Assembly: GCA_003599055.1 (NCBI GenBank)
Contig: QZIM01000002.1
Coordinates: 70,097-134,096 of the forward strand
Origin: Candidatus Woesearchaeota archaeon
GTDB lineage: Archaea > Nanobdellota > Nanobdellia > Woesearchaeales > ARS49
Length of the DNA: 64,000 nucleotides
Reading direction: 5' to 3'
Of this stretch, positions 2,632 to 50,367 are shown piece after piece. The notes below the pieces were generated by a model. The model was not told the origin of the DNA. It did not search any database and saw nothing but the letters and a program-made list of their open reading frames with translations. Both the position numbers and the translations under genes were made by a program. The number at the start of each line of letters is the position of its first letter. Positions within the stretch are counted from its first letter, which is position 1.

Positions 2632-4092
2632 TTGGAAAACTTTATAAATTGCCGTTCCGGGCAGCGTCCTATGGAAGAGAGCAGGCTCGAGGCGCTTATC
2701 AGGAGCGCATTTGAGGAAGGTGCAAGGGTTCTTGAGGCACGGGATGTGCCGTATGAGCTGCCTGCAGTGCAGATTGCAAAAGGGCTCACGAACAAGAACA
2801 TAAAGGCGGATGTTGAATCGCTCGTTCGACTTGAGCAATTGATTGCGGGCGCAGTTCCGTCTTCTGCAACAGGTCCGTTTGCAGGGTTCGCGACCGCGGT
2901 TTTCGCAGGACAGGCAGCGTACAAATTTTGGGACGGCGCAGCGTGTGCGCCATATCACGTGTTTTTGCCGGCGGTTTCTGCCTGTTTTTACGCAGTGCCA
3001 AAGAGGTATCGTTTTGATGAGGTCTTCTTTGGGCTTCTCAGTGCGGGAATTATTCTCACTTCATTAGGCAATCACAACGAGCCTGCGCTGAAGTATGCGC
3101 TGCCGGCAACGTTGGGTCTTGCTGCGCTTTCGGCAATCACGCGTTACGTTAAGGGCGGTTATTCTTCTGAGAGCAGAGCTGCGGTAGGGCAGGCAATCGA
3201 ATCTGCAAAAATGCATTTGCGGGAGCTAAAGCGAGCATCCGCTGAGCAAAGGGATGGGTATGCGCAGACGCTGACCGTTCCTCCTGCAGGCGGGCAGGCC
3301 AAAGGAAGCGGGGAGTGTAATGGGTTGTATTTGGACAGGCGCCAGCGCAGGGCGCAATTCAAGCGGCAAAGTTCTGATGAGCAGCCCGTGGTGGACCATA
3401 TTCCAAAGCACGGGTTTAAAAAGCGAAATGAGGAATCTTCAGTTGATTCTGTTGTGAGTGACTGCAGTGATGTTGAGGAAATTGGAGAGGGTGTGCCTGA
3501 GTATGACCGCTACGTGATGCATTTGAATCGCAAGTATGGTGTTTCACTTGAAACCGCATCAGCGCTTGCGGAAGAATATGGCGTAAAACGGTTCAAGCGC
3601 AATATGCAAAGGCTCAAGCGTGAGTATGATACGCGTGAGATAAAAAGAAAACTGGCGCAAGACCCTTCGCTTCTTGGGAACGGCCCGAAGAAAGAACACG
3701 CGTCCCAAGAAGGAGAGGTGGCGGACCGTGAGCTTGAATTGTACTGGCGCCTGATGCGCGCGCAAAAAATGGACCCGGAAGTTGTGCACGCGGTTCTTGT
3801 GGTCGGCTTTGGCCTTGACGGTGCGGACCCGCGCATTGCTGAGCGCTACATCAACTATGATGATTTTATGAATCGCGTAAACCGGGTCATTCCTGCGAAA
3901 ATGTCTGATGCGCAGGCTTATTTCAGGTCTTTGGTTGCTGCGGGCGTTATTTCGGAAAAGAAGCGCGGTGAAGTGGTGCGGCTTGATGCGCGCTGGCACG
4001 AGCGTGCAGGAGGCATTGAGCGGGAGTATATCAGTTACGCGCTTGAGCGGCGGAATCGGAGCGGACGGCTGCCTCGTCCGAATTCAGTTTAG
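2632..4092 (+). CDS. hypothetical protein with hydrophobic N-terminal half and charged helical C-terminal half
   Basis: Long ORF with several hydrophobic segments in the N-terminal 180 aa and K/R/E-rich helical repeats in the C-terminal part. Alternative start at 2671 (MEESR). Confidence 0.5.
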   Translation: MENFINCRSGQRPMEESRLEALIRSAFEEGARVLEARDVPYELPAVQIAKGLTNKNIKADVESLVRLEQLIAGAVPSSATGPFAGFATAVFAGQAAYKFWDGAACAPYHVFLPAVSACFYAVPKRYRFDEVFFGLLSAGIILTSLGNHNEPALKYALPATLGLAALSAITRYVKGGYSSESRAAVGQAIESAKMHLRELKRASAEQRDGYAQTLTVPPAGGQAKGSGECNGLYLDRRQRRAQFKRQSSDEQPVVDHIPKHGFKKRNEESSVDSVVSDCSDVEEIGEGVPEYDRYVMHLNRKYGVSLETASALAEEYGVKRFKRNMQRLKREYDTREIKRKLAQDPSLLGNGPKKEHASQEGEVADRELELYWRLMRAQKMDPEVVHAVLVVGFGLDGADPRIAERYINYDDFMNRVNRVIPAKMSDAQAYFRSLVAAGVISEKKRGEVVRLDARWHERAGGIEREYISYALERRNRSGRLPRPNSV

Positions 4093-5023
4093 TTGCCTGC
4101 GGTAAAAATCCTCTGATTTCTTCAACGCTTTTCGCCCTGCTCAGTTTGTCCCGCATTTCGGCTCCGCCGCGTATTCCTTTGGTGAAGCTCATCGCGTGGG
4201 TTAAAATGAGGGGGTATTTCAGGTTATATTTCTCTGCAAGTTCCAGAAATTCGAAAAAGTGCGCGATGCGGTCTGTTTCAGGATATTTTCCGTTTTTCAG
4301 ATAATCGTTTATCTGCGTGAACAAGTACGGGTTTCCGATTGCTCCGCGTGCAACAAGTATTGCATCAACGCCGCTTTGGTCAAGCCGTTTTTTAAAATCT
4401 TCAGGGGTGAACACATCGCCGTTTCCGATGACGGGAATGTTGACTTTTTCTTTCACGGTGCGAATAATGTCCCAGTTCGCAATCCCTGAGTAGCCTTGTT
4501 TTTGTGTCCTGCCGTGAATTGCAATCGCGGCAGCTCCCGCATCTTCCGCAAGCCGCGCAATTTCAAGTGCATTAATGTTTTGCTCATCAATTCCGATTCG
4601 TATCTTCAAGGTTACCGGTTTTGAAACAGCGCTTGCAAGTTTGTTGATGAATGTGGCAATGCCTTCAGGTTTTTTGAGCATTTCCGAGCCGGCGCCGGTC
4701 TTGATGACTTTCCACGCAGGGCAGCCGCAGTTAACGTCAATGAGGTCAAAGTCGTTTTCAACCAGCCGTGCTGCAGAGACAACGTCATCAACTGAGCTTC
4801 CGAATAGCTGGACGGCAACAGGAGTTTCAATCGGGTCGGTTTTGAGCATATCGAGCGTGTGCAGGTTGCCGCGAACAATCGCGGTCCCGCTCAAAAATTC
4901 AGTGCAGGTAAGTCCTGCGCCGTATTTCTTGCACAAAGCGCGAAACGCAACGTCCGTGACGCCTGCCATTGGCGAAAGTATTGCGGGCGATGCGAGTTTT
5001 GGGAATGCTGCTTTGTGCTTCAT
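4031..5023 (-). CDS. dus: tRNA-dihydrouridine synthase
   Basis: TIM-barrel flavoenzyme signature: PMAGVTD near the N-terminus, catalytic Cys in DVNCGCP, a FMN-binding K..IRIG block, and GNGD. Length 330 aa is typical of Dus. Confidence 0.85.
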   Translation of the reverse strand: MKHKAAFPKLASPAILSPMAGVTDVAFRALCKKYGAGLTCTEFLSGTAIVRGNLHTLDMLKTDPIETPVAVQLFGSSVDDVVSAARLVENDFDLIDVNCGCPAWKVIKTGAGSEMLKKPEGIATFINKLASAVSKPVTLKIRIGIDEQNINALEIARLAEDAGAAAIAIHGRTQKQGYSGIANWDIIRTVKEKVNIPVIGNGDVFTPEDFKKRLDQSGVDAILVARGAIGNPYLFTQINDYLKNGKYPETDRIAHFFEFLELAEKYNLKYPLILTHAMSFTKGIRGGAEMRDKLSRAKSVEEIRGFLPQATKLNSDEAAVRSDSAAQARN

Positions 5024-5370
5024 TTTTTCGGGCAGAACGGGCAGTCTCCGAATGGCAATGTGATGTGTCCGTTTGGGCAGAAGGGTGATTCTGGCCTGAG
5101 TTTTTGGCGTTCAACGTCTTGTCCGCTTGCGAGTTTTGCAAGGATGCTCGCAAGCCGAAAAAAGTCACTCAGAGGAGTCACGCTTCCTTGCCCCGAATAA
5201 GTGTCAATCACTTGTTTTTGTCCTGCGGTGTAGCCGAATTCAAGGGCTGCCTGGGCAAGCTTGTATGCGTCAGGGGGAAGTTCAGGGTTGTTTCGCAAGA
5301 CCGTGTAAGGAAGAGCACGTTGCGTGTGGTAGGTTTCTTCAAGTTCGCGTTTTACCTGTTCAGGGTCCAT
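5020..5370 (-). CDS. hypothetical protein with C-terminal zinc ribbon
   Basis: ATGA overlap with dus indicates translational coupling. C-terminal CPNGH...CPFCP forms a four-Cys zinc-ribbon pattern. Confidence 0.5.
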   Translation of the reverse strand: MDPEQVKRELEETYHTQRALPYTVLRNNPELPPDAYKLAQAALEFGYTAGQKQVIDTYSGQGSVTPLSDFFRLASILAKLASGQDVERQKLRPESPFCPNGHITLPFGDCPFCPKK

Positions 5371-5460
5371 ATCGTGGATTTTCTTGCAGTCTGTTTATAA
5401 AGAGTTCGGAAGATTTCCGGCAACAGGCAGAAGCATTCCGTGTTCTTCCCGCAAACGCAT

Positions 5461-5632
5461 TTTAAGAGAAAAATGAAAGAAAAAGTGCCAGTCAAAAGCT
5501 GGCAAAGACGGCGGCGCTGGGCGATGCTGGTTCGCCCGCCAAGCTGAGAACTTGGTGTCAGAAATGACCACGGGGTTCAAAAGCTTTGCGGTTTGGGCCG
5601 GGAGCGTGAAACTCCCCGCGCCGTCGTTCTTT
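5461..5632 (+). ncRNA. conserved structured element, copy 1 (candidate small RNA, T-tract end)
   Basis: About 170 nt that are roughly 80% identical to 6160-6330. Both copies begin tttaagagaaaaa, share an identical 53-nt core (cggggttcaaaagctttgcggtttgggccgggagcgtgaaactccccgcgccg), have complementary 5' (acggcggcg) and 3' (cgccgccgt) ends, and finish in a T-run. The shared ORF peptide does not extend beyond the core. Confidence 0.45.
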
Positions 5633-6069
5633 TACTTGTACTTTTCCTGCAGTGCATTCAAAAAGTGCGCAAAGTCCGGCGCGAGCGGATATTCCTGTAA
5701 TCGCGCAATCTGCAAATATTCAAGTTTGCTGAACCGTTCAGGCTCCTGAATTGCGGGTGTCCCGCGCTCAAGTCGCATCAAAAACTTGTACGCGACTGCT
5801 TCTTTTCCGCTTGGTATTTTGAACGGCACTTTTGCAAAGAGTTTAGGCGAAGAAAATGCAACGTCTCCCAGTTCTTCTTTTCCCTCGCGCACGGCTGCGC
5901 GTGCAAAGTCATCAATTGTTGGCGATGACGCGTCCTCGCAATCAGTTTCCTCAACTCTTCCGCCGGGTGTTTCCCAATGCGCGTGTTCCGGCCGGTACAA
6001 GAGCAGAAGCTCTTTTCGCTCGTTCACGATAAGGCAGCTGGCGAGCAGGAGTTTGCCGTTGTGTATCAT
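5632..6069 (-). CDS. NUDIX hydrolase
   Basis: Nudix box GGRVEETDCEDASSPTIDDFARAAVREGKEELG (Gx5Ex7REUxEExGU-like). Confidence 0.8.
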   Translation of the reverse strand: MIHNGKLLLASCLIVNERKELLLLYRPEHAHWETPGGRVEETDCEDASSPTIDDFARAAVREGKEELGDVAFSSPKLFAKVPFKIPSGKEAVAYKFLMRLERGTPAIQEPERFSKLEYLQIARLQEYPLAPDFAHFLNALQEKYK

Positions 6070-6159
6070 ATTGTGAATTTTCTTCCGGTCGGTTTATTAA
6101 TATGCCTGAAAAATTTTCAACAAGGTCTGAAAACTCTCCTTATTTTTAATGCGAACTCA

Positions 6160-6330
6160 CTTTAAGAGAAAAAGAAGAAAGAAAGCCGCCGACGCACGTC
6201 GGCAACGGCGGCGTTGAGCAATCTGGTTGCTCGCCAAGCTGAAACCTTGGTTTCCGAAAGGATATCGGGGTTCAAAAGCTTTGCGGTTTGGGCCGGGAGC
6301 GTGAAACTCCCCGCGCCGCCGTTCTTTTTT
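6160..6330 (+). ncRNA. conserved structured element, copy 2
   Basis: Second copy of the element at 5461-5632. It lies between the NUDIX gene start and the stop of the nucleotidyltransferase gene and ends in ttcttttttt. Confidence 0.45.
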
Positions 6331-8244
6331 TCACATCAGCACTTCATATTCCTTCCCAAACCAGCGTTTCAAACTCTCAAAGAGCGGTTCGCGAAGGCGA
6401 ATGGGCAAAGGAACGAGTTTTGCGAGCGCGTGTTCAAATTCTTCGAGCGTGCAGGCAGAGCTGTTCCCAAGTGAGCCGTCTTGTTCTACCGGTGCTTTTT
6501 CCATTGGTCGGTTTTTGTCGTCAAGGTCAACGACAATGAATGCCGTGTTGCCAAGGATGGTGACTTCGCCGTGTTTGTTGCCGTGTTTTACGCGAAGTTT
6601 TGCGCGGTCGAGTTCTCGTGCGCGCTTGCGGTGCATGTGGTCAACTAAGAACTTGAGCAGTTCGCCGGTTTCTTTGCGTACTTTTTCAAGGTCGTTTTTG
6701 CCAAGTTTTCCCGCATCAAAGAGTCCTTTGCTTTTGACTAAGTCGTGCAGGGTTCGCAAATACTTTGCAGGCACTTTGCCGGTTGCGATGAGTTTCTCTT
6801 CAAAAACAATCGGAAGTTCTGCTTCGCGCGCGGCTTCTACGCCTTCAATTTTTAAGACGTCGCGAAGGACGGTTTGCAACGTGTCATACATTGTGACCAT
6901 GTTTTCGTCGTCTTTTTGTTTCTCAATCTGCGTGAACAGCCGTTTGAGTCGTTTCATATACTTCTCGCAGTCGGCCATCAGCTTGTCCACGTCTTTTCCG
7001 GTGAAGTCCGGGATTTTTCCGTGCTCCATGTCTTTGTAGATGCCGATGACTCTCTCCAGGATTTCGACGTATTCTTCTTCAAGCAGTCCTTCTTTTTTGA
7101 CAAAAATTTCCCGGACAACGCCTGCGGTTTCTTTTGGCGCGGGCGGGGGAACGCCGTACAGCATAAGGGCGGCTTGTGTCGGGCTGTGGATTCCCCAGTA
7201 GAAGTCTTCGGTGGCAATGGTTTTGAGTTTTGCCTTGATGCGGTCAAGCGTTTGCTCTCCGCCTGAGAGGAACATATCGATTGCTTCGGCGGATGGTTTA
7301 ATCTTGCCCATCTTGAGCAGTTGTTTCCAAGGCATAAAGATGCCGCGGTCATACAAGGGCACGCCGTCGCGAAGGAACGTGAAGCAAACAGGGTTTGATT
7401 CGCGCATCATATCCCAGAAGTCAGTCAGGATGTAGACTTGGATGGACAGTTTGTTGCGGATGCCGGTTATTTCGCCTGCTTCAAAGGTCATTTGCTGGAT
7501 GATGCCGCGCAGCTTGTCGCGCAGTTCCGCGCGCGTCATTTTCTTGACGTCAGTATCGTCAATAATGACAACAACGTCAATGTCTGATGTCGGCTTTGCC
7601 TGGCCTTTGACCATTGAGCCTGCCAAGACGTACGCGACAATGTATTTCTCAAATTTCTTAAGGACCATTGAGCGGTGGAGTTCCGCAATGCGAATCGCGC
7701 CGAGCATTCCGGTGTCGTAGACGGGTGCGCTCATGCCGATTAATTGCAACAGGTCGTATTTTGCGTCGTAGCAGTTCTGCCACAGTTCCGAGATGAGGAG
7801 TGTTTGCGGGACGATTGCCGGGTCGATTTCTTTGGCCGTTTGCGCCATTATTGCGGAGAGCTTGTCGCGCAGTTCGAACTTGCTCATTTTGGTCGGCTCG
7901 CTGTCGTCAATCAAAACAAGCGTGTGGTATTTGTCCTTGTCCTGCTCGAATCTTTTTTGTTCTTCGGCGAAAATGTCAGGAGGAAGGTTTGGTGAGGGTG
8001 GGCGCGGTGGGGGCAAAAGTGCCATTCCGACAATGTACTTGTCAAACTTTTCAAGGGTTAATTTTTGGAATTTTTCGAGCTTTTCCTTGATTGCCTTCAT
8101 TTTTTCGGCGACTTCAGGGGGAAGGTTGGGAGGTAATTGCATTCCTTTGGGCGCGTCTTTCGATTCGTCTTTCTTTTCTGTTTTCTTGTCGTACTTTTCA
8201 GTGGGCTGCTCGGTTTTTGTTTCCTTTGTTGTTTTCTTTACCAT
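6331..8244 (-). CDS. tandem nucleotidyltransferase-domain protein (Pol-beta superfamily), Lys/Glu-rich
   Basis: Two repeated modules begin KFDKYIVGMALL... and KFEKYIVAYVLAGSMVKGQAKPTSDIDVVVIIDD. The second keeps the GS-x10-DxD nucleotidyltransferase signature, while the first lacks GS and is probably inactive. The N-terminal 35 aa are low-complexity K/E/T-rich. Confidence 0.6.
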   Translation of the reverse strand: MVKKTTKETKTEQPTEKYDKKTEKKDESKDAPKGMQLPPNLPPEVAEKMKAIKEKLEKFQKLTLEKFDKYIVGMALLPPPRPPSPNLPPDIFAEEQKRFEQDKDKYHTLVLIDDSEPTKMSKFELRDKLSAIMAQTAKEIDPAIVPQTLLISELWQNCYDAKYDLLQLIGMSAPVYDTGMLGAIRIAELHRSMVLKKFEKYIVAYVLAGSMVKGQAKPTSDIDVVVIIDDTDVKKMTRAELRDKLRGIIQQMTFEAGEITGIRNKLSIQVYILTDFWDMMRESNPVCFTFLRDGVPLYDRGIFMPWKQLLKMGKIKPSAEAIDMFLSGGEQTLDRIKAKLKTIATEDFYWGIHSPTQAALMLYGVPPPAPKETAGVVREIFVKKEGLLEEEYVEILERVIGIYKDMEHGKIPDFTGKDVDKLMADCEKYMKRLKRLFTQIEKQKDDENMVTMYDTLQTVLRDVLKIEGVEAAREAELPIVFEEKLIATGKVPAKYLRTLHDLVKSKGLFDAGKLGKNDLEKVRKETGELLKFLVDHMHRKRARELDRAKLRVKHGNKHGEVTILGNTAFIVVDLDDKNRPMEKAPVEQDGSLGNSSACTLEEFEHALAKLVPLPIRLREPLFESLKRWFGKEYEVLM

Positions 8245-21442: not shown

Positions 21443-21543
21443 AATAAAGAAGATTGCTTCAAGCAGCAAAATGACGGGAAGCATCTTCTTGTTTTTCCAA
21501 AAGACATTCCCCGATTTTGGCAGGGTTTGGGAGAGGGTTATGG
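21443..21543. repeat. 101-bp direct repeat, copy 2 (carries stop codon of giant gene)
   Basis: Second copy of 20626-20726. Here ATGA has become ATAA, which supplies the TAA stop of the 2419-aa gene. Confidence 0.7.
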
Positions 21544-24500
21544 TTGGCTCGCTTGTGCGCGCAGGTTTGTTATTGCTTCGTCAATTTCCCTGATTCTGTT
21601 TGTGATTACTATCGAAACGTGTGAAAAGACTGATCTTAGTTGTTGTTCCGTTTGCGCATCGCGTAATTGTTGGGCGACATCAGCGGTGTTTCCTGCGAAC
21701 GGTCGACTTTGTGATATGACAAGGCCTATTGTTGTTCTGAAGTTTGGTTCGGTCTGTCCGCTTGCAACAGGAGTAGTGCTGATTTCATCCAGTTGATTAA
21801 TGTGTGTGGTAAAAGTAGCCCCAACGCTGTTTATCTGCTGAATTGCTTCTGTTCGTGCAGGGTCTGCGGCGTACGCGAGTATGTTGGGGTAGGAGGGGTC
21901 TCGCCGTTGTTCGAAGTATGTTTTTTGGGCAGTAAGTTGTTGTTTGTAGTTGTCAAGTATGGTGATTGCTCTTTGTATTTTCTCAAGGCGAGATATGGTT
22001 TGAATTGATGGAGGAGGGGTGGGAGGTCTGCCGGCAGCGGCAAGTTCAAGAGATGCTTTTGCATGAGTGAGGTCTTCCATCACGAAATTCGTTGCGATGT
22101 TGTAAGATCCGACTGATTCTCGGATAATATCAATCGTTCCTGCTGTTGAGAACTCATTCTTTCGTTGGGGAAGGTTGCCTGGGTTCAACCAAACAGTAAT
22201 GGTGTCGCGTATTATGCGTGTACGTCTTGTGCTCTCGGCAACACTCGGCGCGGTCTGGTTTAATGCTTCAAGTCGGGATATGTGCTGTTCGATTACGGAC
22301 TTTTGGCGTTGGAGGACAGAAATGTATTCATCCATCTGGGTGATGGTTGTTGAGAGCAAGGGTGGACGGGTATATGCGAGAAGTTCGGTGTCACTTTTGC
22401 TCATAATCTCACTAAATCTTGCTCTGTGTATTTGTTGTTCTGCATTGAATTGGTCAATAGTGCTGATTACTCCGCTCAGTGTCTGAAGGGAGGTCGTTTG
22501 TGGTATCTGCGGCGCACTTGTCACCGGTGCTCTCTGTGCAGGACCAAGGATGCTGGTGATGAATTGTTGTGTTTTTGCTTGGAGGTCGGTTGCGAATGCT
22601 GCGGCATCAGGTGGTGCAGGGGTTATTTCGGTTCCGTTGTTTGCGCGCAAGATGACCCCGAATAGCTGGTTATTACGGTAGATGATGACTGCGTTGCGGT
22701 TAAACTCAAGGAGGGCGACGCGGTATTCGTTGTTTTCAGGGGTGCTTGCATAGATTCCTCTGCCGGCGTCGTACCTGAATTCAGTAATTTGTCCGGTGAA
22801 GTCGCGCAGGGTGATGGTGTTTGTTTGTCCGTTGTATTGCCACGCATTTGTTCCGTAAATTTGGTACACTTGTCCTGCCCGTTGTACTTGTCCTCCGAGT
22901 TGTTCGATTTGCCGTGCAGTATCAATCGTGTTGATGAGGGTTACTAATTCGCCGGTCTTTTCGCTGACTTCATCTGCGGTCGGCGCTTCGCTAAGTCCCG
23001 CTATTTGTGTGCGGATGGTGGTAAGTCTTGTTTTTGCCGTGTTTAATCGCGTTTTGTAATTGGTGAGTGTGGTGTTTGTTGTAAGCGCATTTGTCTTGTC
23101 ATTCGCATTCTGAATGTTTGGAATTGCGGTGCTGAATGCAGTGTGTGCTGTTTCAAACGGTTGTGTTTGTAATTGGTATGTTTCAAGCAGGTCATCAACA
23201 GTGCGTAGGAGCCGCAGTCGTATTTGCCTGCGTGCCGCGTCGTCTGCGGTGTCTGCGCGTGCGGCAGTGCCAAGTTCAGTGAAGGTCGTGCGCGCCTCTG
23301 CTTCTTTGCTGGCGATTGGCTGCAGGGTGTCAATGATGCGGCGAATCAGTTCGGCAACATTAGATGTTTGTGATGATTGGACTTGGCTTTGGATGCGGGG
23401 GTCTTGTTTGGTTGTGCAAATCGCGTTAAACGTGATGCTTTTGGTTACGGGTTCGTCAGTAATGGGGTCTATGCTGGTTTGTTCGGTTCTGATGCCGAAG
23501 CGGTCGGAATCTTTTGCGGTGTATGTGATGGTGAACGGTTGCGGCTGTAATTGTGCGGTTGGGTTCTCGCACGGGTTAAGGTCAGGGGTGAGTCCCCAGG
23601 AGATGAGGTATTGGCGTGTTTCTCCGGGTGCAAGGCCGATGGGTGCTTGGGGGAATTCAAGGACGATGCGGGGGATACCGACGCGTTGGTCTGTGGTTCC
23701 GGATATGGTTCCTGCGCCTGCGTACGTTATTTGTCTTTGCATAATTCCTTCGCTTGCGCCGGGGAGTTTTTGCCGTTTGCCGTTAAAGCCGTTTTCACCA
23801 ACGCCGCGCTCAGGGCTTGCATCGTAGAGTACGTAGGTTTCCCTGCGGTCGCTGTCTGCTTTGACTTCGATGATGAAGTTGAATGGTTCAGTGTGTTGTG
23901 TTCCGTCAGGTTTGAGAATGTTAACAAGGGCGATTGCGGACGCGGCGGGTTGTGCGGTTTGCGGGTTGTTCACTGAACTCCACTGGTTGATTTCTCGGTT
24001 TTGTGTTCTTCCGCTGCCGAACCAGTTTTGTGCAACGATTGGCCGCGCGCCGAAGTCTTCAAAGGACATGGTGTAATCGCCGTTTTTGAGGGTGCGAACT
24101 TCGTCTGATGAGCGCGCAACTTCCCTTCCTTGGCTGTTTTTGATGCTGTAGGAGAGGTATTTTGCTTCGGAGGGTTCTGTTTCGCTGAAGATGGTTTGGC
24201 GGACGCGTAACGTGGCAGCGACTGGTTCGTTGAGGGTGAAAACGGGTGTTGGGATATTCACGGTTGGCTGGACGGTTGCGTCAAGGAATTGGATGTTTCC
24301 TGTTTCGTCGCCAAGGACGCAGCGGAACGCAAGCGATAAGGGGTCAAAACGGCACATTGAGGGCGCGCTGCCGGGGCCGTCTGTGCTGATGGTGCACTCG
24401 TCGGTTTTTGACGTGCGGGTTTGCTTGCCGTCGTTCCACGACCAGCGAAGGTATGCCTTGTCGTAGCGGATTTGCCTATCACCGGGGGTTCCGTCCATTG

Positions 24501-27500
24501 TGATGAAGAGTTCTTTGTTTTCGATTTGCCCGTTTGCAACGTTTGTTGACAGTCCTTCCGGGTTCACCACGAGTTCTTTTGGCGTGTCGCAGTCGCATTT
24601 GCCGCGGGCAAACCCGTCGCTTTCGCGGCACTTAAAGCCGCCGCTGCATTTGAGGACGAGTTCGACGTTTTCAAGGGCTGCGCCTGCGGCGATTCCTGCG
24701 CCGAATTGGTATTGCCAGGTGACCAGGCCTGATGGTCGTGTTGCGGGGTTAAAGCCGATGAACCTGCGCGAGCAGGGGAAGAGAAGGCCGTAGCTTTCGG
24801 TGGGTACTTCTTGGATTGCAGCATCGAATGCTGCGTCAAGGTCAAGGTTCCACGTGCCGGTGAATGCGAAAAGGCAGATGGAGTGGACGAGTTTTTTCTC
24901 AACGAAGACTTGTTTGTACATACTGGTTTCGCCGTAGCGTGATTGGACTGAGCGTGAGAGTTCCGCGCCGGTTGAGGTAAGGGCGCCCATAACGTTGCCA
25001 ACGCCGCTGTATTCGAGGCGTTTGCCGCTTGGTGAGCTGAATTTTTGGGTAAAGCACGCGATTGCGTCATAGAGTAAGTCGCAGGCGTGTTGTGATACGA
25101 CTGCTTGGCAAACGCCTGATGAGCCGTCGCCCGTAAGGAGGATGGTGTTCATACAGTCTCTCACTGCGCCTAAGATGTTGCGCCAGCGTTGGAGGAATGC
25201 GATGAGTGTGGGGATGCAAATGCAGCGAAGGGAGTTGACAAGGCCGTCGCCCGGGCGGATGATGTATTCTTGGTCGGGTGTTCCGATGATTGCCATTGCC
25301 TGGTCGTAGATGTCTTGCCCGACGACCGGGCAGGTTTGGTCTGTGCCGTATCCTGCGGCGACGCAAAGGGCGTTGCGGAATCCCTGCATATCGGTGATGG
25401 TCTGTTTTTGGTAGTATTCCTCGATTTTTTCCTGGGTGAAGTAGGGTTGGATGCTGGTGCTGTCAACTTCGATTGCGTTAAGGTTTGCGTTGATGCGGTG
25501 CTGGTTGCTTGCAGGGGTGGTTCCTGCTTGGGGTGAGCGGTCGAATTCGATGGTTTCGGCGACGTAGCCCAAACGGATGTTGTATTCGCCGGTGGTCGCG
25601 GTTCCTCCTTGCGCGCTTTGCGGAATGAGGAGGAGGTAGAGTTGCTGTTCTTTTGGTGCTGCAAGGCCTGCAAGGACGCCGGTGGCTCCGCTGCCGGTAT
25701 CGCAGCACGCTTTGGCAACAGGGATGGTGTGCGGGGTTTCTTTGCCGTCGTTGTCGCAGAACCCGCCGACGGAGTTAAGGATGTTGCCGCATTCAACGCT
25801 GCCTTTGTTGGGGCCAAGGCTGATGCCTCCGGGCACGTTTGCTTTCTCTGCAGACAAACACGTGCTTTCTTCGATTTCGTTGAACGTGTCAAGTCCGAAT
25901 GCGGAAACGCCGCACGCAGAGCTCCATTCTTTCATATAGGCAAACCCGCAGCATTCAGGTGCGGCGGGGTGGAGGTCGTCGCAGTTGACTTTGCCTGAGG
26001 ATTGTGCGGAGCTTTCAAAGGGGTATGGTGCGCTGTCTGTTTGGTGGTCGCGCCATTTGAGGTAGATGTCTCGTACTTGGTTGTAGGTGAAGAAGAGTCT
26101 TGGCGGCTGTCGCAGGCGTGTTTGCTGCTGTTGTGCTGCTTGTGTTTGTCCTGCTTTTTTGATGAGTGCTGCGCAGTCAGAGCCTATCATCACTGACTCT
26201 CCTTCCTTGTAATACGTATCGCCGGTGTATTTTGCTTTTGCCGCATCGCTTGTGAGCGTGACCGGCGTGAGTCTTTGCGGTGCGTGTTGTCTCAGATAGT
26301 ATTGCAGTGATGGCGCGGAGGGGCACATGACGCGGTCGCATACCTGTCGATAGGTTTGGTCAACGAATGCGCGCCTGCGTTTTGCATCGGAACATTCATT
26401 GCAGTTTCCTTTTGCTTCGTCTTGGTCTGTTCCGCTGTATTCTTCGTTGCACGCGCCGATTGCGGCAACGTTCGGGTCGAATTTGCCTTCATCGTCAAGC
26501 GATGAGAGTACGGAATCAAACTCGCACTGGTATTTTTCGATAAAGATGGGGATGAGCGAGACTCCTTGTCCTGCAAGGCAGGTGTAGAACAAATACTTCC
26601 CGATGGTTTGGATGGGCTTAAGGACAGTGTCGATTCCTTCGATGATGCTGGTGAGAAGTTCAGAGGTGGTTTGAAGCAGTCCTTTTGGGATGTAGCGGGG
26701 AGGTATTGGGATGTCGATAGGCAGTTCAATGGAAACACACGTTCGTTGGAACTGTGTTGTTGTCTGTTCTGTTTCCTGTGTGCGGCGAACGAGCGGGTCG
26801 GTGCTGAGCGGTCCGACGGTTTCTTGGAACGGTATTTCAAGTTCGAAGAAGAGTTTCATGCAGCCAAAGCCGGGGACAAGGCAGTCTTTGAGGCGGTGTT
26901 TTGCGATTACTTCGCGCTTGGCGAACGTGGTGGCGTTGCTTGGCTCTTTTTCTTCCGCAAGTTCGGGCAGTTGTTGCCAGGGGTTGTCAATTGGCCTGAA
27001 GGTGAATTGCAGATAGCCGGTTCCTTCAGGGGTGCTTCCCCGTCCTGTTGACCGGACGCCGAGCGGGCGTTGGTTGTATGCGACAAGAGTATTATCATAA
27101 TCCTTTCGCGCTTCAGGGCCAAGTTCAAGCGGCAGTATTTTGATTTGGTTGCGGTTGATGGTCGCGCTTTGCCCGCCTTGGTATTTGTAGGTGAACGAGA
27201 GTCCGACTTGTTGGGCGCCTTGAATGAGTAATTGCGGGTTGAGGATTTCAGGGGTTGGCTTGCTGAGTTCGACCGCGATTTTTGTGCCGCTGCCGCAGAG
27301 CTGGTAGTCTATTTCTTCTTCCGAAGTTTGCGTGGTGAATCCGACGGCGTCGCTTGCGTCAAGGCGGATTTTGTTGCCCCAAACGATTTGTCCGACTGCG
27401 CGGGTTGCGTTCTTTTGGAGGGAGGTGCTGCGTTCAAGTTTGATGGGAATGCTGAACGTTCCGTCGTCTGCGGTAAGGACGGTCTTTTGCGGTTTTCCGT

Positions 27501-28797
27501 TCACGATTGCGGTGACGCTTCCTTTTTCGCTGAGTTTGCCGCGGGCAACAACGTCTGATTGGTAGGTGGGGCCGAGGTTGCGCAGGTTGGTTTCAACAAA
27601 GCGCGGCGCGCCCGTGTCGTGAATGACGCGAGATTCGACGAGCGTGACGTATCCTGCCTTGTCAACTGCCTTTACTTCGACAAGGTTTTCGCCTTGTTGG
27701 AGGGGTACGGGGACGCTGCTGCGCCCGGTCGTGAGGGTGAGGTGTTGCGGTTCTTGGCCGCAGCTGAGGCGCGCGGAAGTGACGTTGTCATTGCGCGCAG
27801 TGCCTGCAGGTATGGTGGCGGTTTCAACGTCGCTGCGGTCTCCTTCAATGCAGCCCAAGCTGACCGCGCTGACTTGGTATTGGTATGACTTTCCGGGGCT
27901 GATTGAAGTGTCAACGTACTCGTTTTTGCCGGGGACTGCGATGCGAACGCCGTCGCGATAGACGGCGTATTCAAGGATGCCGGTTATCTCGTTCCACGTG
28001 AGCGTGACTTGGCCGGTTTCGATTTTGGTTGCCTGCAGGTTGCCCGGGCGAAGAGGGGGTTCTCCTTGGGGTCGTGACGTGATGGTGATGTTGACGGGTT
28101 CGCTGACCGTGATGTTTGCAATGACGGGTTGTTGTGTTGCGGTTGGCGGGATGCTGACGTTCATGCTTGCGGGAGCAGTATCAACTTCGATTACTTGCGT
28201 TTGTGTTGCGGTTTCGTTGCCAAGGGTTGCGATGAGCGTGACGTTTTGCGGCTGCGCGCGCAGTTCTATTTCGCGAAAGAGGAAGTCTCCGCGGTCGCTC
28301 ACGGTTCTGCGCAGTTCATTGCCGTTAAGGAGCAGTTGGACGGTGGCGCCGGGCCGTGTTTTGCCGCTAACTTCAAGCCGTGGTGTTTTGCTGTAGCGAG
28401 GGAGGTTCGCGCTAACGAAGAGTTTTCCTGCGTAGAACTGTTGGGTTGGGCTGTTTTTGCAGTTTCCTGATTCATCGCAGGACGTGATGCGGTAATAATA
28501 CGGTGTTCCCTGTACGGTGGGGATGGTGATGTTGTGCGCGGTGACAAGGGCGTTGTCTGTTGTGGTGTTGTCAAGCGCGAGTGTTCGCCCAAAGGCAACT
28601 CCTCCGGTTGCGGGAATGTTGGTGGTCCACGTGATGGTGGTGCTCTCTTGGTTGAAGGTAAGGGTGATGTCGCGCAGCTCAGGGGGTGTTGCAGTGCTTG
28701 TTGTTGTCGCATTGCTTGCGTTTACGTCTTGTGCGAAGGCAAAGGGGAAACTACAGAGGAGCCAAATGAGTGCGATTGTGAGGGGTTGTTTTCTCAT
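21538..28797 (-). CDS. giant secreted surface protein (2419 aa) with fibronectin type III and beta-rich repeats
   Basis: Signal peptide MRKQPLTIALIWLLCSFPFAFAQ and an uninterrupted 7.3-kb ORF. An FN3-like segment is present (LQATKIETGQVTLTWNEITGILEYAVYRDGVRIA...YQYQVSAVSLG). The C-terminal 600 aa are Q/T/A-rich and helical. Confidence 0.8.
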   Translation of the reverse strand: MRKQPLTIALIWLLCSFPFAFAQDVNASNATTTSTATPPELRDITLTFNQESTTITWTTNIPATGGVAFGRTLALDNTTTDNALVTAHNITIPTVQGTPYYYRITSCDESGNCKNSPTQQFYAGKLFVSANLPRYSKTPRLEVSGKTRPGATVQLLLNGNELRRTVSDRGDFLFREIELRAQPQNVTLIATLGNETATQTQVIEVDTAPASMNVSIPPTATQQPVIANITVSEPVNITITSRPQGEPPLRPGNLQATKIETGQVTLTWNEITGILEYAVYRDGVRIAVPGKNEYVDTSISPGKSYQYQVSAVSLGCIEGDRSDVETATIPAGTARNDNVTSARLSCGQEPQHLTLTTGRSSVPVPLQQGENLVEVKAVDKAGYVTLVESRVIHDTGAPRFVETNLRNLGPTYQSDVVARGKLSEKGSVTAIVNGKPQKTVLTADDGTFSIPIKLERSTSLQKNATRAVGQIVWGNKIRLDASDAVGFTTQTSEEEIDYQLCGSGTKIAVELSKPTPEILNPQLLIQGAQQVGLSFTYKYQGGQSATINRNQIKILPLELGPEARKDYDNTLVAYNQRPLGVRSTGRGSTPEGTGYLQFTFRPIDNPWQQLPELAEEKEPSNATTFAKREVIAKHRLKDCLVPGFGCMKLFFELEIPFQETVGPLSTDPLVRRTQETEQTTTQFQRTCVSIELPIDIPIPPRYIPKGLLQTTSELLTSIIEGIDTVLKPIQTIGKYLFYTCLAGQGVSLIPIFIEKYQCEFDSVLSSLDDEGKFDPNVAAIGACNEEYSGTDQDEAKGNCNECSDAKRRRAFVDQTYRQVCDRVMCPSAPSLQYYLRQHAPQRLTPVTLTSDAAKAKYTGDTYYKEGESVMIGSDCAALIKKAGQTQAAQQQQTRLRQPPRLFFTYNQVRDIYLKWRDHQTDSAPYPFESSAQSSGKVNCDDLHPAAPECCGFAYMKEWSSACGVSAFGLDTFNEIEESTCLSAEKANVPGGISLGPNKGSVECGNILNSVGGFCDNDGKETPHTIPVAKACCDTGSGATGVLAGLAAPKEQQLYLLLIPQSAQGGTATTGEYNIRLGYVAETIEFDRSPQAGTTPASNQHRINANLNAIEVDSTSIQPYFTQEKIEEYYQKQTITDMQGFRNALCVAAGYGTDQTCPVVGQDIYDQAMAIIGTPDQEYIIRPGDGLVNSLRCICIPTLIAFLQRWRNILGAVRDCMNTILLTGDGSSGVCQAVVSQHACDLLYDAIACFTQKFSSPSGKRLEYSGVGNVMGALTSTGAELSRSVQSRYGETSMYKQVFVEKKLVHSICLFAFTGTWNLDLDAAFDAAIQEVPTESYGLLFPCSRRFIGFNPATRPSGLVTWQYQFGAGIAAGAALENVELVLKCSGGFKCRESDGFARGKCDCDTPKELVVNPEGLSTNVANGQIENKELFITMDGTPGDRQIRYDKAYLRWSWNDGKQTRTSKTDECTISTDGPGSAPSMCRFDPLSLAFRCVLGDETGNIQFLDATVQPTVNIPTPVFTLNEPVAATLRVRQTIFSETEPSEAKYLSYSIKNSQGREVARSSDEVRTLKNGDYTMSFEDFGARPIVAQNWFGSGRTQNREINQWSSVNNPQTAQPAASAIALVNILKPDGTQHTEPFNFIIEVKADSDRRETYVLYDASPERGVGENGFNGKRQKLPGASEGIMQRQITYAGAGTISGTTDQRVGIPRIVLEFPQAPIGLAPGETRQYLISWGLTPDLNPCENPTAQLQPQPFTITYTAKDSDRFGIRTEQTSIDPITDEPVTKSITFNAICTTKQDPRIQSQVQSSQTSNVAELIRRIIDTLQPIASKEAEARTTFTELGTAARADTADDAARRQIRLRLLRTVDDLLETYQLQTQPFETAHTAFSTAIPNIQNANDKTNALTTNTTLTNYKTRLNTAKTRLTTIRTQIAGLSEAPTADEVSEKTGELVTLINTIDTARQIEQLGGQVQRAGQVYQIYGTNAWQYNGQTNTITLRDFTGQITEFRYDAGRGIYASTPENNEYRVALLEFNRNAVIIYRNNQLFGVILRANNGTEITPAPPDAAAFATDLQAKTQQFITSILGPAQRAPVTSAPQIPQTTSLQTLSGVISTIDQFNAEQQIHRARFSEIMSKSDTELLAYTRPPLLSTTITQMDEYISVLQRQKSVIEQHISRLEALNQTAPSVAESTRRTRIIRDTITVWLNPGNLPQRKNEFSTAGTIDIIRESVGSYNIATNFVMEDLTHAKASLELAAAGRPPTPPPSIQTISRLEKIQRAITILDNYKQQLTAQKTYFEQRRDPSYPNILAYAADPARTEAIQQINSVGATFTTHINQLDEISTTPVASGQTEPNFRTTIGLVISQSRPFAGNTADVAQQLRDAQTEQQLRSVFSHVSIVITNRIREIDEAITNLRAQASQP

Positions 28798-30878
28798 ATG
28801 AATGTGGGCCTCAGTGCGGTTGCGTAGGGTGTTCCTTCATATTGTCCGCGTTCGTGGAGGAACAGGAAGAGTCCTGCCTGCTGGTGGGGTTTTTCGGGGA
28901 GCGGCCGGTATTCCATAACGTGAAAGACGATGTTGTCTGCGGTTGCCAAGTCTTCGTATTTGAGCGTGATGTTTTCCGCGTGGTAGCCGCCGACGGGAGT
29001 GTCGCCTTTGAAGAGGAGGATGTCAAGGTCGTATTGCGCGTCGTCGTGGACGAGCCAAAGTTCGTTGCGTGCAATGCCTTCTGCTTCGGAAACAAGCCCG
29101 CTTTCTTCTGAGCTGAACTGGGTGAGGTTTGCGGGGTAGAGGAGGTATTGGTCGAATTCCTTGCCGCGAAGGGAAAGCGAGACGGTTGCGTGCATGGTTT
29201 TGGGAAGTCTTGTGTATATTTGTGAGTCGAGCCAGCGTTGTGCGCGGGCGTTCATGGGGTCGGTTGTGCTGACTTCTTCGTAGTAGGGGTGCACTTGGAT
29301 GGAATAGTTGAGTTTTTTGAGCTTGGTGAGGGAGAGGTCAACGCGGTTCTCGGTTGCCTGCTGTTCGGATGAGAGGTATCCTTCTTTTTGCCCGATGATG
29401 AGGGGGGCGTTGCATCCTTCGGGCAGGTAGCTAAAGAGGCGAATGGCGCCTGACCCGTCGCTGTACGTTTGGCCAAGGAGGCATTCTTGGTTAAGGCAGC
29501 GGTAGGTGACATTGACTCCGTCAAGTTCTTCTGCGATGGGGCTTCCTTCAACGAATCCGCGTGCGCGAACGTCAATCGTGCGGTCTCCGAAGCTTGTGCA
29601 GAATTCGGTTGTGAGCGGCGGCGCGCGGAACTCGCGCAGTCCAAAGAATATGCGGCTCGGTTCGTTGTCTTTGATGATAACGGGGAATGCGTAGTTGAAC
29701 ACGTATCCTTCGCCGTTGAATGCGTCATCGTCGCGAATGGAGACTTTGATGGGGTAGATGAGGTCATAGGTGAAATGCCATTGGTTGAGGCAGACAAAGC
29801 GCAGGTATTTGCGCGGGCCTTTCATATTTTCTGTGGAGAGGATGCCGCCGCGTGCGGGGTCTGCGTTAAGGAAGAGTTGGCCGTTGAGGGGATAGGTGAA
29901 TGCTGCTTTAAGGGTGGTGTCGCGAACGCCGGCATCAAGGGTCATGCGGTTGATTTCGTAGACGTCATCAGGGACATTGCGCGGCCAGTTGGGCGTTGCT
30001 CCCGCTTCGAGTTGTGCGCGAATCGTTTCCGCTTGGTCTTTGAGCCGTTCATAGGTGCGCTCGCTTGCGATGGGTTCGGTGTTTTGCGTGTTTGCAACGC
30101 GAACCGTGGGCAGGTTATACGCAAGGAGGTTGCGCAGTTCGTTTCGGACTTCGGGAAGGTACCATTTTTTGGTTCCGCAACTGAACTCCATTCCGCTCAA
30201 GGGTATGCGGCTGTTTGCGCTCATAAGGTCAAGGGTGAGATTTTCAAACCATTCCTGCTCGTTTTCTGCTTTCATAATTGCAGAGGCAAGTTCGTGGATG
30301 GGCTTGAGGCGCACGGTGTGGCTGGTGACAAAGTCAGTCATTTGTGTCCTGCGTTCGGTTGTTTGAATGTCAAGGGGCCAGTTGACGTTGACAATGACGC
30401 GGTCATCGGTGATGCTGATGACGGGGAGGATATTTCCGGTTGGGGTGACTTCAAAGACAGGGGCAAACGCGCGAAACTCATCAACGCATTCAGCGAGGTT
30501 GTTTTTGATGTGATGTTGAAGTTCGCGCGTGATGGTTTCAAGCGATGGCGTGCGGTCTTCTCCTTCAAAGTACCAGTACGGGGTTTTGAGGGTGCCGAAT
30601 TCGTCAAGCGCGACATAGCTTGAGGGGGTTCGCGCGATGATTTGGGGAATTTCAATGTATCCGCTTTGTTGCCCTAAGATTTCAAGGCCTTCGCGGGTAA
30701 GGTCGCGCGTGCACGTGACGACGGCATCGTAGATTTGCTGCACGTCTTCGGGGACGGTGATTGCGCGCTCAAGCGGTGCGCGCGCTTCGCGGGAGGTAAA
30801 ATAGATGACAAGTCCGATAGAGAGGAGAATGATAAGTCCTAATATGATAAATATGGTGAGCTGTGCTCGATTATTCAT
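28794..30878 (-). CDS. large type-IV-pilin-like protein (class III signal peptide), 694 aa
   Basis: The N-terminus MNNRAQLTIFIILGLIILLSIGLVIYFTSRE is a basic residue plus Gln followed by a single hydrophobic helix. It is a paralog of 31504..32409 and 43594..45735, sharing the post-TM block V..C.....G...G.QGGY. ATGA overlap with the giant gene downstream. Confidence 0.65.
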   Translation of the reverse strand: MNNRAQLTIFIILGLIILLSIGLVIYFTSREARAPLERAITVPEDVQQIYDAVVTCTRDLTREGLEILGQQSGYIEIPQIIARTPSSYVALDEFGTLKTPYWYFEGEDRTPSLETITRELQHHIKNNLAECVDEFRAFAPVFEVTPTGNILPVISITDDRVIVNVNWPLDIQTTERRTQMTDFVTSHTVRLKPIHELASAIMKAENEQEWFENLTLDLMSANSRIPLSGMEFSCGTKKWYLPEVRNELRNLLAYNLPTVRVANTQNTEPIASERTYERLKDQAETIRAQLEAGATPNWPRNVPDDVYEINRMTLDAGVRDTTLKAAFTYPLNGQLFLNADPARGGILSTENMKGPRKYLRFVCLNQWHFTYDLIYPIKVSIRDDDAFNGEGYVFNYAFPVIIKDNEPSRIFFGLREFRAPPLTTEFCTSFGDRTIDVRARGFVEGSPIAEELDGVNVTYRCLNQECLLGQTYSDGSGAIRLFSYLPEGCNAPLIIGQKEGYLSSEQQATENRVDLSLTKLKKLNYSIQVHPYYEEVSTTDPMNARAQRWLDSQIYTRLPKTMHATVSLSLRGKEFDQYLLYPANLTQFSSEESGLVSEAEGIARNELWLVHDDAQYDLDILLFKGDTPVGGYHAENITLKYEDLATADNIVFHVMEYRPLPEKPHQQAGLFLFLHERGQYEGTPYATALRPTFI

Positions 30879-31503: not shown

Positions 31504-32409
31504 ATGAAAAGAGGTCAGGTTACTGTTTTTATCATATTGGGTATTTTGCTTCTTGCAGGGGTTGGTTTCTATCTTTACTTGTCCGGTCGTGAGGCAGAGG
31601 TTCCGCTTGAGGCGGGCGTGATGAAGCCGACAACAGACCCGCGGGTTTTTCAGGAGTTTGTTGAGGCGTGTCTTGCGGAGACCGTGACGCAGGGAGTTTA
31701 TACGATTGCGGCGCAAGGCGGCTATTCTGCGCCAAAGGGTGATTGGTCGCTTGGCGATTCCGGAGACGGTCTTCCGATTCACTATTATGTGCCTGAGGGG
31801 GTCGTGCCGTTTGTTTTGAACAGGAACGATTCGGCAGTGCGTCCTCTTGCTGATGTTGAGCTGGTTCTTGCGCGGTATGTTGCGGCGAATTTTGATGAGT
31901 GTTTGGACTTTTCTGATTTGGAAGCAAGAGGGTACGAGGTAAAAAAGCCAACTGTTGACTTTGAGGCGATAAACTGGGATTTTGCAAGGGCAAAAGTTGA
32001 GTTTGCGCAGGAGACCGTGCGAATAGATGCAGAGCTTCGGCCTGAGGGCGATATTTTTGTTCGCGCAAGATACCCGATTGCGGTAAGCGGCCTTGATGCG
32101 TCGTTTACGATTCCGGAAACTGCAGTGGTTGTGCCGCTTCGGCTGGCGTTGCTCCATAAGATTGCCGTGCGTCTTGCTGACCAGATAGGGAAGGCGGCAA
32201 GGCAGGGAAGTGCCTATAAGGTTGATGAGCATTGTCAGGAATATGCTCCGGCGGATATGCAGGTAAATGTGTATGCGTTCAAGAGCGGCGCCGTGCGTGA
32301 GGCGCTCATCACCGTAGTTGACGCAAGCCCGCGTCGTCTTGGCTTAGCCCCGCTTCGGTTCAATATTGCCGTGCGAAATGCGGATGCAGAAGGAGTGTGT
32401 CTTGGATGA
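31504..32409 (+). CDS. type-IV-pilin-like protein (class III signal peptide), 301 aa
   Basis: MKRGQVTVFIILGILLLAGVGFYLYLSGRE is a classic KRGQ prepilin-like start. Its conserved block (EFVEACLAETVTQGVYTIAAQGGY) is shared with the 694- and 713-aa paralogs. The 13-nt overlap with the downstream giant gene indicates co-transcription. Confidence 0.7.
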   Translation: MKRGQVTVFIILGILLLAGVGFYLYLSGREAEVPLEAGVMKPTTDPRVFQEFVEACLAETVTQGVYTIAAQGGYSAPKGDWSLGDSGDGLPIHYYVPEGVVPFVLNRNDSAVRPLADVELVLARYVAANFDECLDFSDLEARGYEVKKPTVDFEAINWDFARAKVEFAQETVRIDAELRPEGDIFVRARYPIAVSGLDASFTIPETAVVVPLRLALLHKIAVRLADQIGKAARQGSAYKVDEHCQEYAPADMQVNVYAFKSGAVREALITVVDASPRRLGLAPLRFNIAVRNADAEGVCLG

Positions 32410-50296: not shown

Positions 50297-50367
50297 GGGG
50301 CTATGATCTAGGGGTATGATGCGAGGTTTGGGACCTCGTCGCCGCGGTTCAATTCCGCGTAGCCCCA
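50297..50367 (+). tRNA. tRNA-Pro (anticodon UGG), no encoded CCA
   Basis: Hand-folded cloverleaf: acceptor GGGGCTA/TAGCCCC, U8, anticodon stem CGAGG/CCTCG, loop TTTGGGA (U33, anticodon TGG, G37), 4-nt variable loop, T-stem CGCGG/CCGCG with loop TTCAATT, discriminator A. The D-stem has one mismatch. Confidence 0.7.

Follow-up and report, generated by a model that had tools for sequence, protein, structure and literature searches.

Non-canonical introns with a bulge-helix-bulge (BHB) motif interrupt transfer RNA (tRNA) genes outside the anticodon loop in Thermoproteales, Nanoarchaeota and other archaea, for example at positions 53/54, 56/57 and 59/60 (PMC4090602, PMC4033280). They combine a 3-nt bulge, a 4-bp helix and a second 3-nt bulge with the T-stem as the outer helix; their removal restores a canonical T-loop, and standard tRNA finders do not see them. 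Position 59/60 is among the documented non-canonical sites in Archaea (PMC4090602), and DPANN lineages, whose tRNA sets are reported to be incompletely predicted, are described as having splicing endonucleases of broad substrate specificity that are associated with disrupted tRNA genes (PMC5829648). Here we describe a duplicated element from a Candidatus Woesearchaeota archaeon, found in a 64-kb stretch of contig QZIM01000002.1 (positions 70,097 to 134,096; hereafter the window). The two copies are very probably paralogous archaeal tRNA genes, W1 (5510-5626, plus strand) and W2 (6207-6321, plus strand), each with an intron in its T-loop. The introns share all of the properties listed above. 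They differ from the described cases in that the intron is fixed in a single tRNA family (nine of nine members, in several DPANN lineages) and ranges in length from 25 to 99 nt.

The copies lie on the plus strand at about 5461-5633 and 6161-6330, on either side of a NUDIX hydrolase gene, and the window contains no further copy. Aligned with each other, 5440-5660 and 6140-6355 show a column identity of 85%; a repeat finder returned 5534-5633 and 6229-6328 as a 100-nt pair with 90% identity, and a 53-nt core (5571-5623 and 6266-6318) is invariant. A 28-mer from this core occurs twice in the 64 kb, against 0 expected occurrences. Both copies open with TTTAAGAGAAAAA (at 5461 and 6161, the only exact matches in the window) and close with a run of T (5627-5633 and 6322-6330). 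An earlier sequence-only reading had reported the duplication around the NUDIX gene, the fully identical core, the common start and the oligo-T end, all of which are borne out. It had put the extent at about 170 nt; the duplicated module is longer (about 5371-5633 and 6070-6330). It had also placed each plus-oriented copy directly 3′ of a minus-strand gene, as is the case: the stop codons of the convergent genes are 5 nt (copy 1) and 9 nt (copy 2) away. Identity varies along the module: it is 65% in the upstream spacer, compared with 49 ± 3% for random 90-mers, 69% in the leader, 77% over tRNA positions 1-48 and 98% across the T-arm, intron and 3′ acceptor strand, the parts that make up the 53-nt core.

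RNAalifold on the two copies gives 43 pairs, of which 3 carry double changes and 0 are broken. In the consensus, ACGGCGGCG and CGCCGYCGU form a terminal helix, and compensatory changes mark three small hairpins. The sequence-only reading was right about both the helix and the compensatory pattern; the former is a 7-bp acceptor stem extended by two leader/trailer base pairs, and the hairpins are the D, anticodon and variable arms. Several pairs in the conserved helices are G-U and are valid only when the plus strand is read. The sequence-only view of the copies as non-coding structured RNA genes on the plus strand, each with its own terminator, was also right.

From 5′ to 3′, each copy consists of a 9-bp terminal helix, a hairpin with CUGG in the loop, a 5-bp stem closing a loop of 7 nt that reads C-U-GAG-A-A in copy 1 and C-U-GAA-A-C in copy 2, a GAAA-capped hairpin and an interrupted T-arm, CGGGG-UUCAAA...(31 nt)...U-CCCCG. 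ARAGORN makes no call on the raw copies. When 5582-5612 and 6277-6307 are excised, it calls tRNA-Leu(GAG) for W1 and ‘tRNA-Phe(GAA)’ for W2, both with long variable arms. As a control we listed every excision in the window, on either strand, with a central helix of 4 bp and an outer helix of 3 bp or more (21,239 candidates), and tested all spliced products with ARAGORN; a tRNA spanning the junction was obtained only from the W1 and W2 sites.

The 5′ exon of W1 (5510-5581, tRNA positions 1-59; defined by ARAGORN after intron removal and by the covariation count) comprises the acceptor 5′ strand, D-arm, anticodon arm with the anticodon GAG at 5546-5548, variable arm GUCA-GAAA-UGAC, T-stem 5′ strand and the T-loop bases UUCAAA. 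It is followed by the 31-nt intron AGCUUUGCGGUUUGGGCCGGGAGCGUGAAAC (5582-5612), which is placed by the BHB in the minimum-free-energy (MFE) and RNAalifold structures and by the excision screen, and by a 3′ exon (5613-5626; from sequence and ARAGORN) with U60, CCCCG, the acceptor strand CGCCGUC and G73; CCA is not encoded. W2 has the same layout. Its 5′ exon (6207-6276, positions 1-59; ARAGORN after intron removal) has U8, A14, G18G19, the anticodon GAA (6241-6243) and the variable arm UUCC-GAAA-GGAU; the 31-nt intron (6277-6307; alignment, ARAGORN and BHB fold) is identical in sequence to that of W1, and the 3′ exon (6308-6321; sequence and ARAGORN) has U60, CCCCG, CGCCGCC and G73. Each gene appears to have its own upstream A/T-rich promoter box and oligo-T terminator.

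In both genes the intron lies in the T-loop, between positions 59 and 60. The BHB is the MFE fold of this segment and is also present in the RNAalifold structure: the outer helix GGGG/CCCC (the T-stem), the bulge ACU, the helix UUCA/UGAA, the bulge AAA and the inner helix GCUUU../..GGAGC. In standard BHB geometry, the RNA is cut after the second base of each bulge. This geometry is consistent with published descriptions (PMC4090602), and the cuts predicted here would fall after A5581 and C5612 in W1 and after A6276 and C6307 in W2. In the precursor, U54-A57 of the T-loop and a UGAA close to the intron's 3′ end would form the central 4-bp helix, flanked by the T-stem as the outer helix and the intron hairpin as the inner one. 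The archaeal splicing endonuclease would then cut both 3-nt bulges and an RNA ligase would join the exons, giving a predicted junction of GGGGUUCAAA joined to UCCCCG. Excision turns GGGG-UUCAAA...U-CCCC into the canonical GGGG-UUCAAAU-CCCC. The expected products are class II tRNAs of 86 nt (W1) and 84 nt (W2), with a 7-bp acceptor stem, a 5-bp T-stem, the T-loop UUCAAAU, a long variable arm and G73, to which the CCA end would be added post-transcriptionally.

Further copies, which the sequence-only reading had looked to, exist elsewhere: seven homologous loci with the same architecture are found on other Woesearchaeota/Nanoarchaeia contigs. Six archaeal relatives (L012, L014, L018, L019, L025 and L027) came from a pattern scan, beside chance bacterial matches. 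The seventh (L030) is syntenic: it follows the nucleotidyltransferase gene, is encoded on the other strand and immediately precedes the dihydrouridine synthase gene (Dus). In all seven the intron occupies the identical tRNA position, with a length of 25-99 nt and a divergent sequence, and the four bases preceding its last two are UGAA or UGGA, the pairing partner of U54-A57. A BHB is present in all eight distinct introns. The 5′ bulge, AAA in the window, is AA plus a variable third base in the homologues, and the 3′ bulge, ACU in the window, is two variable bases plus U. The central helix is UUCA/UGAA (UGGA in L012 and L019) and the outer helix is the T-stem in every member. The inner helix is present in the window copies, L030, L014, L018, L027 and L012, is offset in L025 and is absent from L019, which has a relaxed BHB form. 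Between the window and L030, this inner helix differs by three compensatory pairs (G-C to A-U, C-G to U-A and U-A to C-G). The position of the intron is thus constant while its sequence drifts, and the UUCAAAU T-loop is restored by splicing in nine of nine sequences.

The nine spliced sequences form the cloverleaf of the tRNA family (Rfam RF00005), with a 7-bp acceptor stem, a 5-bp anticodon stem and a 5-bp T-stem, a T-loop of the UUCRANY type closed by G53-C61 and, except in L014, G18G19 in the D-loop (8/9). Across them, 96.6% of cells in the cloverleaf are paired, compared with 39-46% when the partners are slid; 16 of the 27 cloverleaf pairs show changes on both sides, and none of 500 shuffles reached the covariation score. 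All six pairs of the variable arm covary. The 49:65 pair alternates between C-G and G-C, and A15:U48 is found in all members but W1. ARAGORN calls eight of the nine spliced sequences. The anticodon loop has 7 nt with U33 and a purine at 37 (CUGAGAA in W1; CUGAAAC or CUGAAAA in the others, except L030).

Several observations weigh against this identification. The structural alignment was fitted manually to the cloverleaf and is biased towards it, yet the margin is large. The Rfam tRNA model found neither the genomic copies, at the gathering score or at E <= 10, nor the 5′ exons when these were offered as truncated tRNAs. L027 is not called by ARAGORN even when spliced; in L030 (2462-2637, reverse strand) the anticodon loop, AUUGAAACC, comprises 9 nt, or 7 nt if an A-C mismatch is taken to close it; and L012 is mismatched at two places in its acceptor stem. 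The core of W1 departs from the tRNA consensus in having C8 and in missing A14, and position 8 in the family is U in three of nine members and A or C elsewhere. No intron-less orthologue that would fix the exon boundaries turned up in the genome, metagenome or viral scans, in which the pattern was able to match intron-less genes. Finally, the tRNA is missing at this locus in the closest relatives, L028 and L029, a pattern that an accessory gene fits better than a sole essential tRNA-Phe gene.

Among the relatives, L014 (reverse strand, about 4654-4840 in reverse-complement coordinates) has a 99-nt T-loop intron; its 6.9-kb contig is binned as Methanosarcinales and is probably a mis-binned DPANN contig. 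For the Woesearchaeota contigs of L012 and L019, the alignment (82-85%) runs as far as the end of the tRNA. Their introns differ, and the L012 copy, whose two mismatches lie in the acceptor 3′ strand, may be decaying or recombined; a second 3′ tRNA copy, as a signature of integration, was not present within the contig sequence examined. In viral sequences, an 18-mer taken from the core matched once, by chance (L001), and the tRNA-body pattern did not match.

The sequence-only reading had seen in the element a candidate for a new family of small RNAs or riboregulators, or for a mobile structured repeat. A trans-acting RNA of about 170 nt that switches between two internal hairpins would suit the stable covarying structure with its own T-run and the lack of an Rfam family match: a scan of the region at E <= 10 returned no credible family, only noise (Clostridiales-1 at E = 0.61, and models of small nucleolar RNAs and microRNAs). 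Of the two hairpins, CGGGG...CCCCG is real and is the T-stem. The other, GGGAG/CUCCC, can be drawn in the window copies as an alternative pairing of the intron with the 3′ strand of the T-stem, but it is outside the MFE fold, which is the BHB, and on inspection roughly half of the homologues lack a counterpart of it. The hairpin is thus not conserved, and the homologues lend no support to the proposed switch. Every structural element maps instead to a cloverleaf plus a BHB intron, the anticodon-, T- and D-loop signatures are kept in the homologues, and no target or regulated gene can be named, all of which makes a regulatory RNA of this kind very improbable. The ARAGORN calls after excision, the BHB and the covariation point to a pair of intron-containing tRNA genes, a feature of a known kind, and not to a new family of small RNAs. 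Other RNA classes were rejected on their defining motifs, which are absent on reading, together with the silence of Rfam: 5S ribosomal RNA, which has a similar length and a terminal helix; the signal recognition particle and RNase P RNAs; and H/ACA or C/D small RNAs (K-loop, ACA box). A minus-strand riboswitch or 5′ untranslated region was rejected on account of the G-U pairs.

As for mobility, a relic of a mobile element could be imagined in which the 53-nt segments are att-like repeats from integration into a tRNA gene, the NUDIX gene was brought in and one or both copies are pseudogenes. The identical segment does run from the T-arm to the 3′ acceptor strand, the usual target of integrases, around a cargo of 0.7 kb; the tRNA-NUDIX-tRNA-ORF116 block is missing in L028 and L029, with a single tRNA in L030; and the gradient of identity (65%, 77%, 98%) suggests recombination or gene conversion at the 3′ side. 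However, both copies are full-length, with 5′ halves that are complete and different, stems kept by compensatory changes without a broken pair in the two-copy consensus, and an upstream box and a terminator retained in each. The upstream promoter spacer is duplicated as well, as expected of a tandem duplication more than of an att repeat, and the neighbouring open reading frames (ORFs) that were scanned contain no recognised integrase or recombinase domain. We therefore consider such a relic unlikely. A functional unit on the other strand, as 3′ untranslated or terminator structures of the nucleotidyltransferase and NUDIX messenger RNAs running antisense, seems hardly credible: terminator-like hairpins with T-runs do occur just beyond each copy, at 6206-6185 and 5504-5486, but the G-U pairs would become A-C mismatches, and it is the plus strand that yields a complete tRNA. 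A minus-strand role may be a further feature of the leader hairpins, but it leaves the element itself unexplained.

If W1 and W2 are tRNA genes, their identity elements form an unusual combination. Each of the nine members is of class II, with a long variable arm, G73 and A37; position 20 is U. The anticodon is GAA in eight of nine and GAG in W1 alone. By published rules, leucine identity in archaea is set by A73 and the variable arm, serine identity by the variable arm and G73, with SerRS ignoring the anticodon, and phenylalanine identity by G34, A35, A36 and A73, plus G20 in A. pernix (PMC9976931). Measured against these sets, the family has the variable arm of tRNA-Leu without its A73, and the GAA anticodon of tRNA-Phe (8/9) with G73, U20 and a class II body. 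It has the variable arm and G73 of tRNA-Ser, the classical serine identity set (PMC9976931, PMC5389517), with an anticodon that is not that of serine. Canonical archaeal tRNA-Phe likewise has GAA after U33; it is a class I tRNA with A73, a conserved determinant of phenylalanine identity (PMC9976931), and with G37 as the wyosine site (PMC5113207), none of which is found in the variable-arm family.

The family is not an ordinary tRNA-Leu, because it has G73 and A37 where a tRNA-Leu from one of the same genomes has A73 and G37. In L025 that intron-less tRNA-Leu(UAA) (2423-2508) precedes the class II tRNA(GAA) (3963-4082) by 1.4 kb, and the two offer a contrast of identity elements within one genome. 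With class II tRNAs of the Leu and Ser type, the family shares a long variable arm of 3-6 bp plus loop and the 7/5 acceptor/T configuration; it differs in the D-arm, a 4-bp stem with a loop of 8-9 nt. A D-stem of 4 bp with an 8-9-nt loop is more like that of class I tRNAs. An 8/4 or 9/4 configuration (tRNA-Sec-like or allo-tRNA-like) was rejected in favour of 7/5 on two grounds: the covariation of the 49:65 pair, and the presence in three of nine members of a base at position 8 that cannot pair with position 65.

In our working view W2 decodes UUY, with PheRS, recognising the GAA anticodon, as the enzyme most likely to charge it, and W1 decodes CUY; charging by SerRS or LeuRS is a live alternative, given G73 and the variable arm. 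The UUY code appears standard, as the phenylalanine residues of the LysRS encoded in the window align with conserved phenylalanines in solved LysRS structures. The nematode nev-tRNAs (PMC3333845) and bacterial allo-tRNAs (PMC5389517) are likewise variable-arm tRNAs with anticodons of neither leucine nor serine, and their charging is set by the body and not the anticodon. The nev-tRNAs are eukaryotic and the allo-tRNAs bacterial, and the latter have 8/4 or 9/3 acceptor/T branches compared with 7/5 here. A class II tRNA-Phe or a variable-arm tRNA of this kind in DPANN archaea was not found in the literature, of which our coverage was partial, and a family with a class II body, a GAA anticodon and G73 is undescribed as far as we found. 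We suggest tentatively, as a possibility that we consider somewhat doubtful, that this conserved class II tRNA with G73, A37, an obligatory T-loop intron and a GAA anticodon is either the first class II tRNA-Phe or an archaeal counterpart of the nev- and allo-tRNAs that places serine or leucine at phenylalanine codons, with the GAG of W1, a structurally intact paralogue, as a natural alloacceptor shift to the leucine codons CUY on an unchanged type of body.

These tRNA genes matter for annotation. The two in the window were missed by ARAGORN and the Rfam tRNA model, as were seven more in related contigs, and T-loop introns of this kind are one concrete reason for the apparently incomplete tRNA sets of DPANN genomes (PMC5829648); inferences of missing tRNAs or of host dependence in small DPANN genomes warrant BHB-aware searching. 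The tRNA with variable arm, G73 and GAA, kept across several lineages, fits no published identity rules for phenylalanine, leucine or serine. If it is charged with phenylalanine, PheRS tolerates a class II body and G73; if with serine or leucine, decoding would be ambiguous in an archaeon. The GAG paralogue W1 forms with W2 a natural pair for asking whether the anticodon or the body sets identity.

Upstream of copy 1, the box TTTAAGAGAAAAA (5461-5473, plus strand) lies 49 to 37 nt before tRNA position 1 and is a candidate archaeal TATA/BRE (B recognition element) promoter box of W1. The exact match in copy 2 is at 6161-6173 (plus strand), and GTTAAGGG stands at an equal distance upstream in the syntenic homologue L030. 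For comparison, the tRNA-Pro gene at 50297, the single tRNA that ARAGORN and Rfam found in the raw window, has a TTTATAA box 33 nt upstream. Between box and tRNA is a leader hairpin, GCCAG/CUGGC in copy 1 (5486-5504; found as 5504-5486 in a terminator scan of the minus strand, with a T-run after it) and GCCGAC/GUCGGC in copy 2 (6185-6206; also terminator-like on the minus strand). It is kept with a different sequence, covaries between the window copies and is also present in L030. These hairpins may terminate the NUDIX and nucleotidyltransferase transcripts, which may cross the tRNA genes antisense before ending. At the other end, the T-run UUCUUUU (5627-5633, plus strand), the likely archaeal terminator of W1, overlaps the NUDIX stop codon on the other strand, and the T-run terminator of W2 (6322-6330, plus strand) abuts the stop codon of the nucleotidyltransferase gene.

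The minus-strand genes around the pair are a 116-aa ORF (5020-5370), divergent from copy 1; the NUDIX hydrolase gene between the tRNA genes (5632-6069; Pfam PF00293, E = 1.2e-11); and a 637-aa nucleotidyltransferase gene (6331-8244; from the ORF table). The last is 100% identical to a Candidatus Woesearchaeota archaeon protein and has thousands of homologues, of which the named ones are from Woesearchaeota or Nanoarchaeota. Other neighbours are a DusB-like dihydrouridine synthase and, farther off, TruD and LysRS. TATA-like boxes read from the sequence, TTTATAAA at about 5394-5401 for the divergent, apparently leaderless 116-aa ORF and one at about 6093-6103 for the divergent NUDIX gene, lie about 30 nt before the ATGs. 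Together with the TTTATAA box of tRNA-Pro and its lack of an encoded CCA, they mark the gene organisation here as archaeal. The spacers that contain them, 5371-5460 (repeat family D2) and 6070-6160, are paralogous. The unrelated 116-aa ORF and NUDIX gene have paralogous promoter and initially transcribed regions (65%, repeat D2), and these two genes therefore have a common duplicated divergent promoter module.

Across L002, L003, L028, L029 and L030, the nucleotidyltransferase-Dus interval (5023-6331 in the window) is a variable spot. In the closest relatives, L028 and L029, Dus follows the nucleotidyltransferase gene directly and the interval is empty; L030 has one tRNA, the window has tRNA-NUDIX-tRNA-ORF116, and L002 and L003 have other small genes. 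Among the contigs with nucleotidyltransferase homologues, L030 alone carries the element, which is absent from L002-L005, L028, L029, L031 and L032. As the interval holds no tRNA in L028 and L029, one in L030 and two in the window, the tRNA and divergent-promoter module was duplicated within this variable intergenic spot, and the 98% identity of the 3′ segment compared with 77% over positions 1-48 points to gene conversion or recombination of the 3′ part. W2 has 80-81% identity to the homologues (nearest L030 at 81% and L014 at 80%), whereas W1 has 72-73%; because W2 is nearer to them, W1 is the derived duplicate of the pair. That all of its stems are kept by compensatory change argues that W1 is functional.

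Over the whole window the plus strand is rich in G and T, with a GC skew of +0.02 to +0.29 even though genes lie on both strands, and with a negative AT skew in all 2-kb bins but one, a strong compositional strand asymmetry. Long ORFs occur at 21538-28797 (minus strand), 28794-30878 and 37668-45735, one of them of 2419 aa. Five ORFs of about 700-1070 aa were scanned, and four of the five have no Pfam match. A 1008-aa ORF (32397-35423) has only a C-terminal cupredoxin domain in Pfam.

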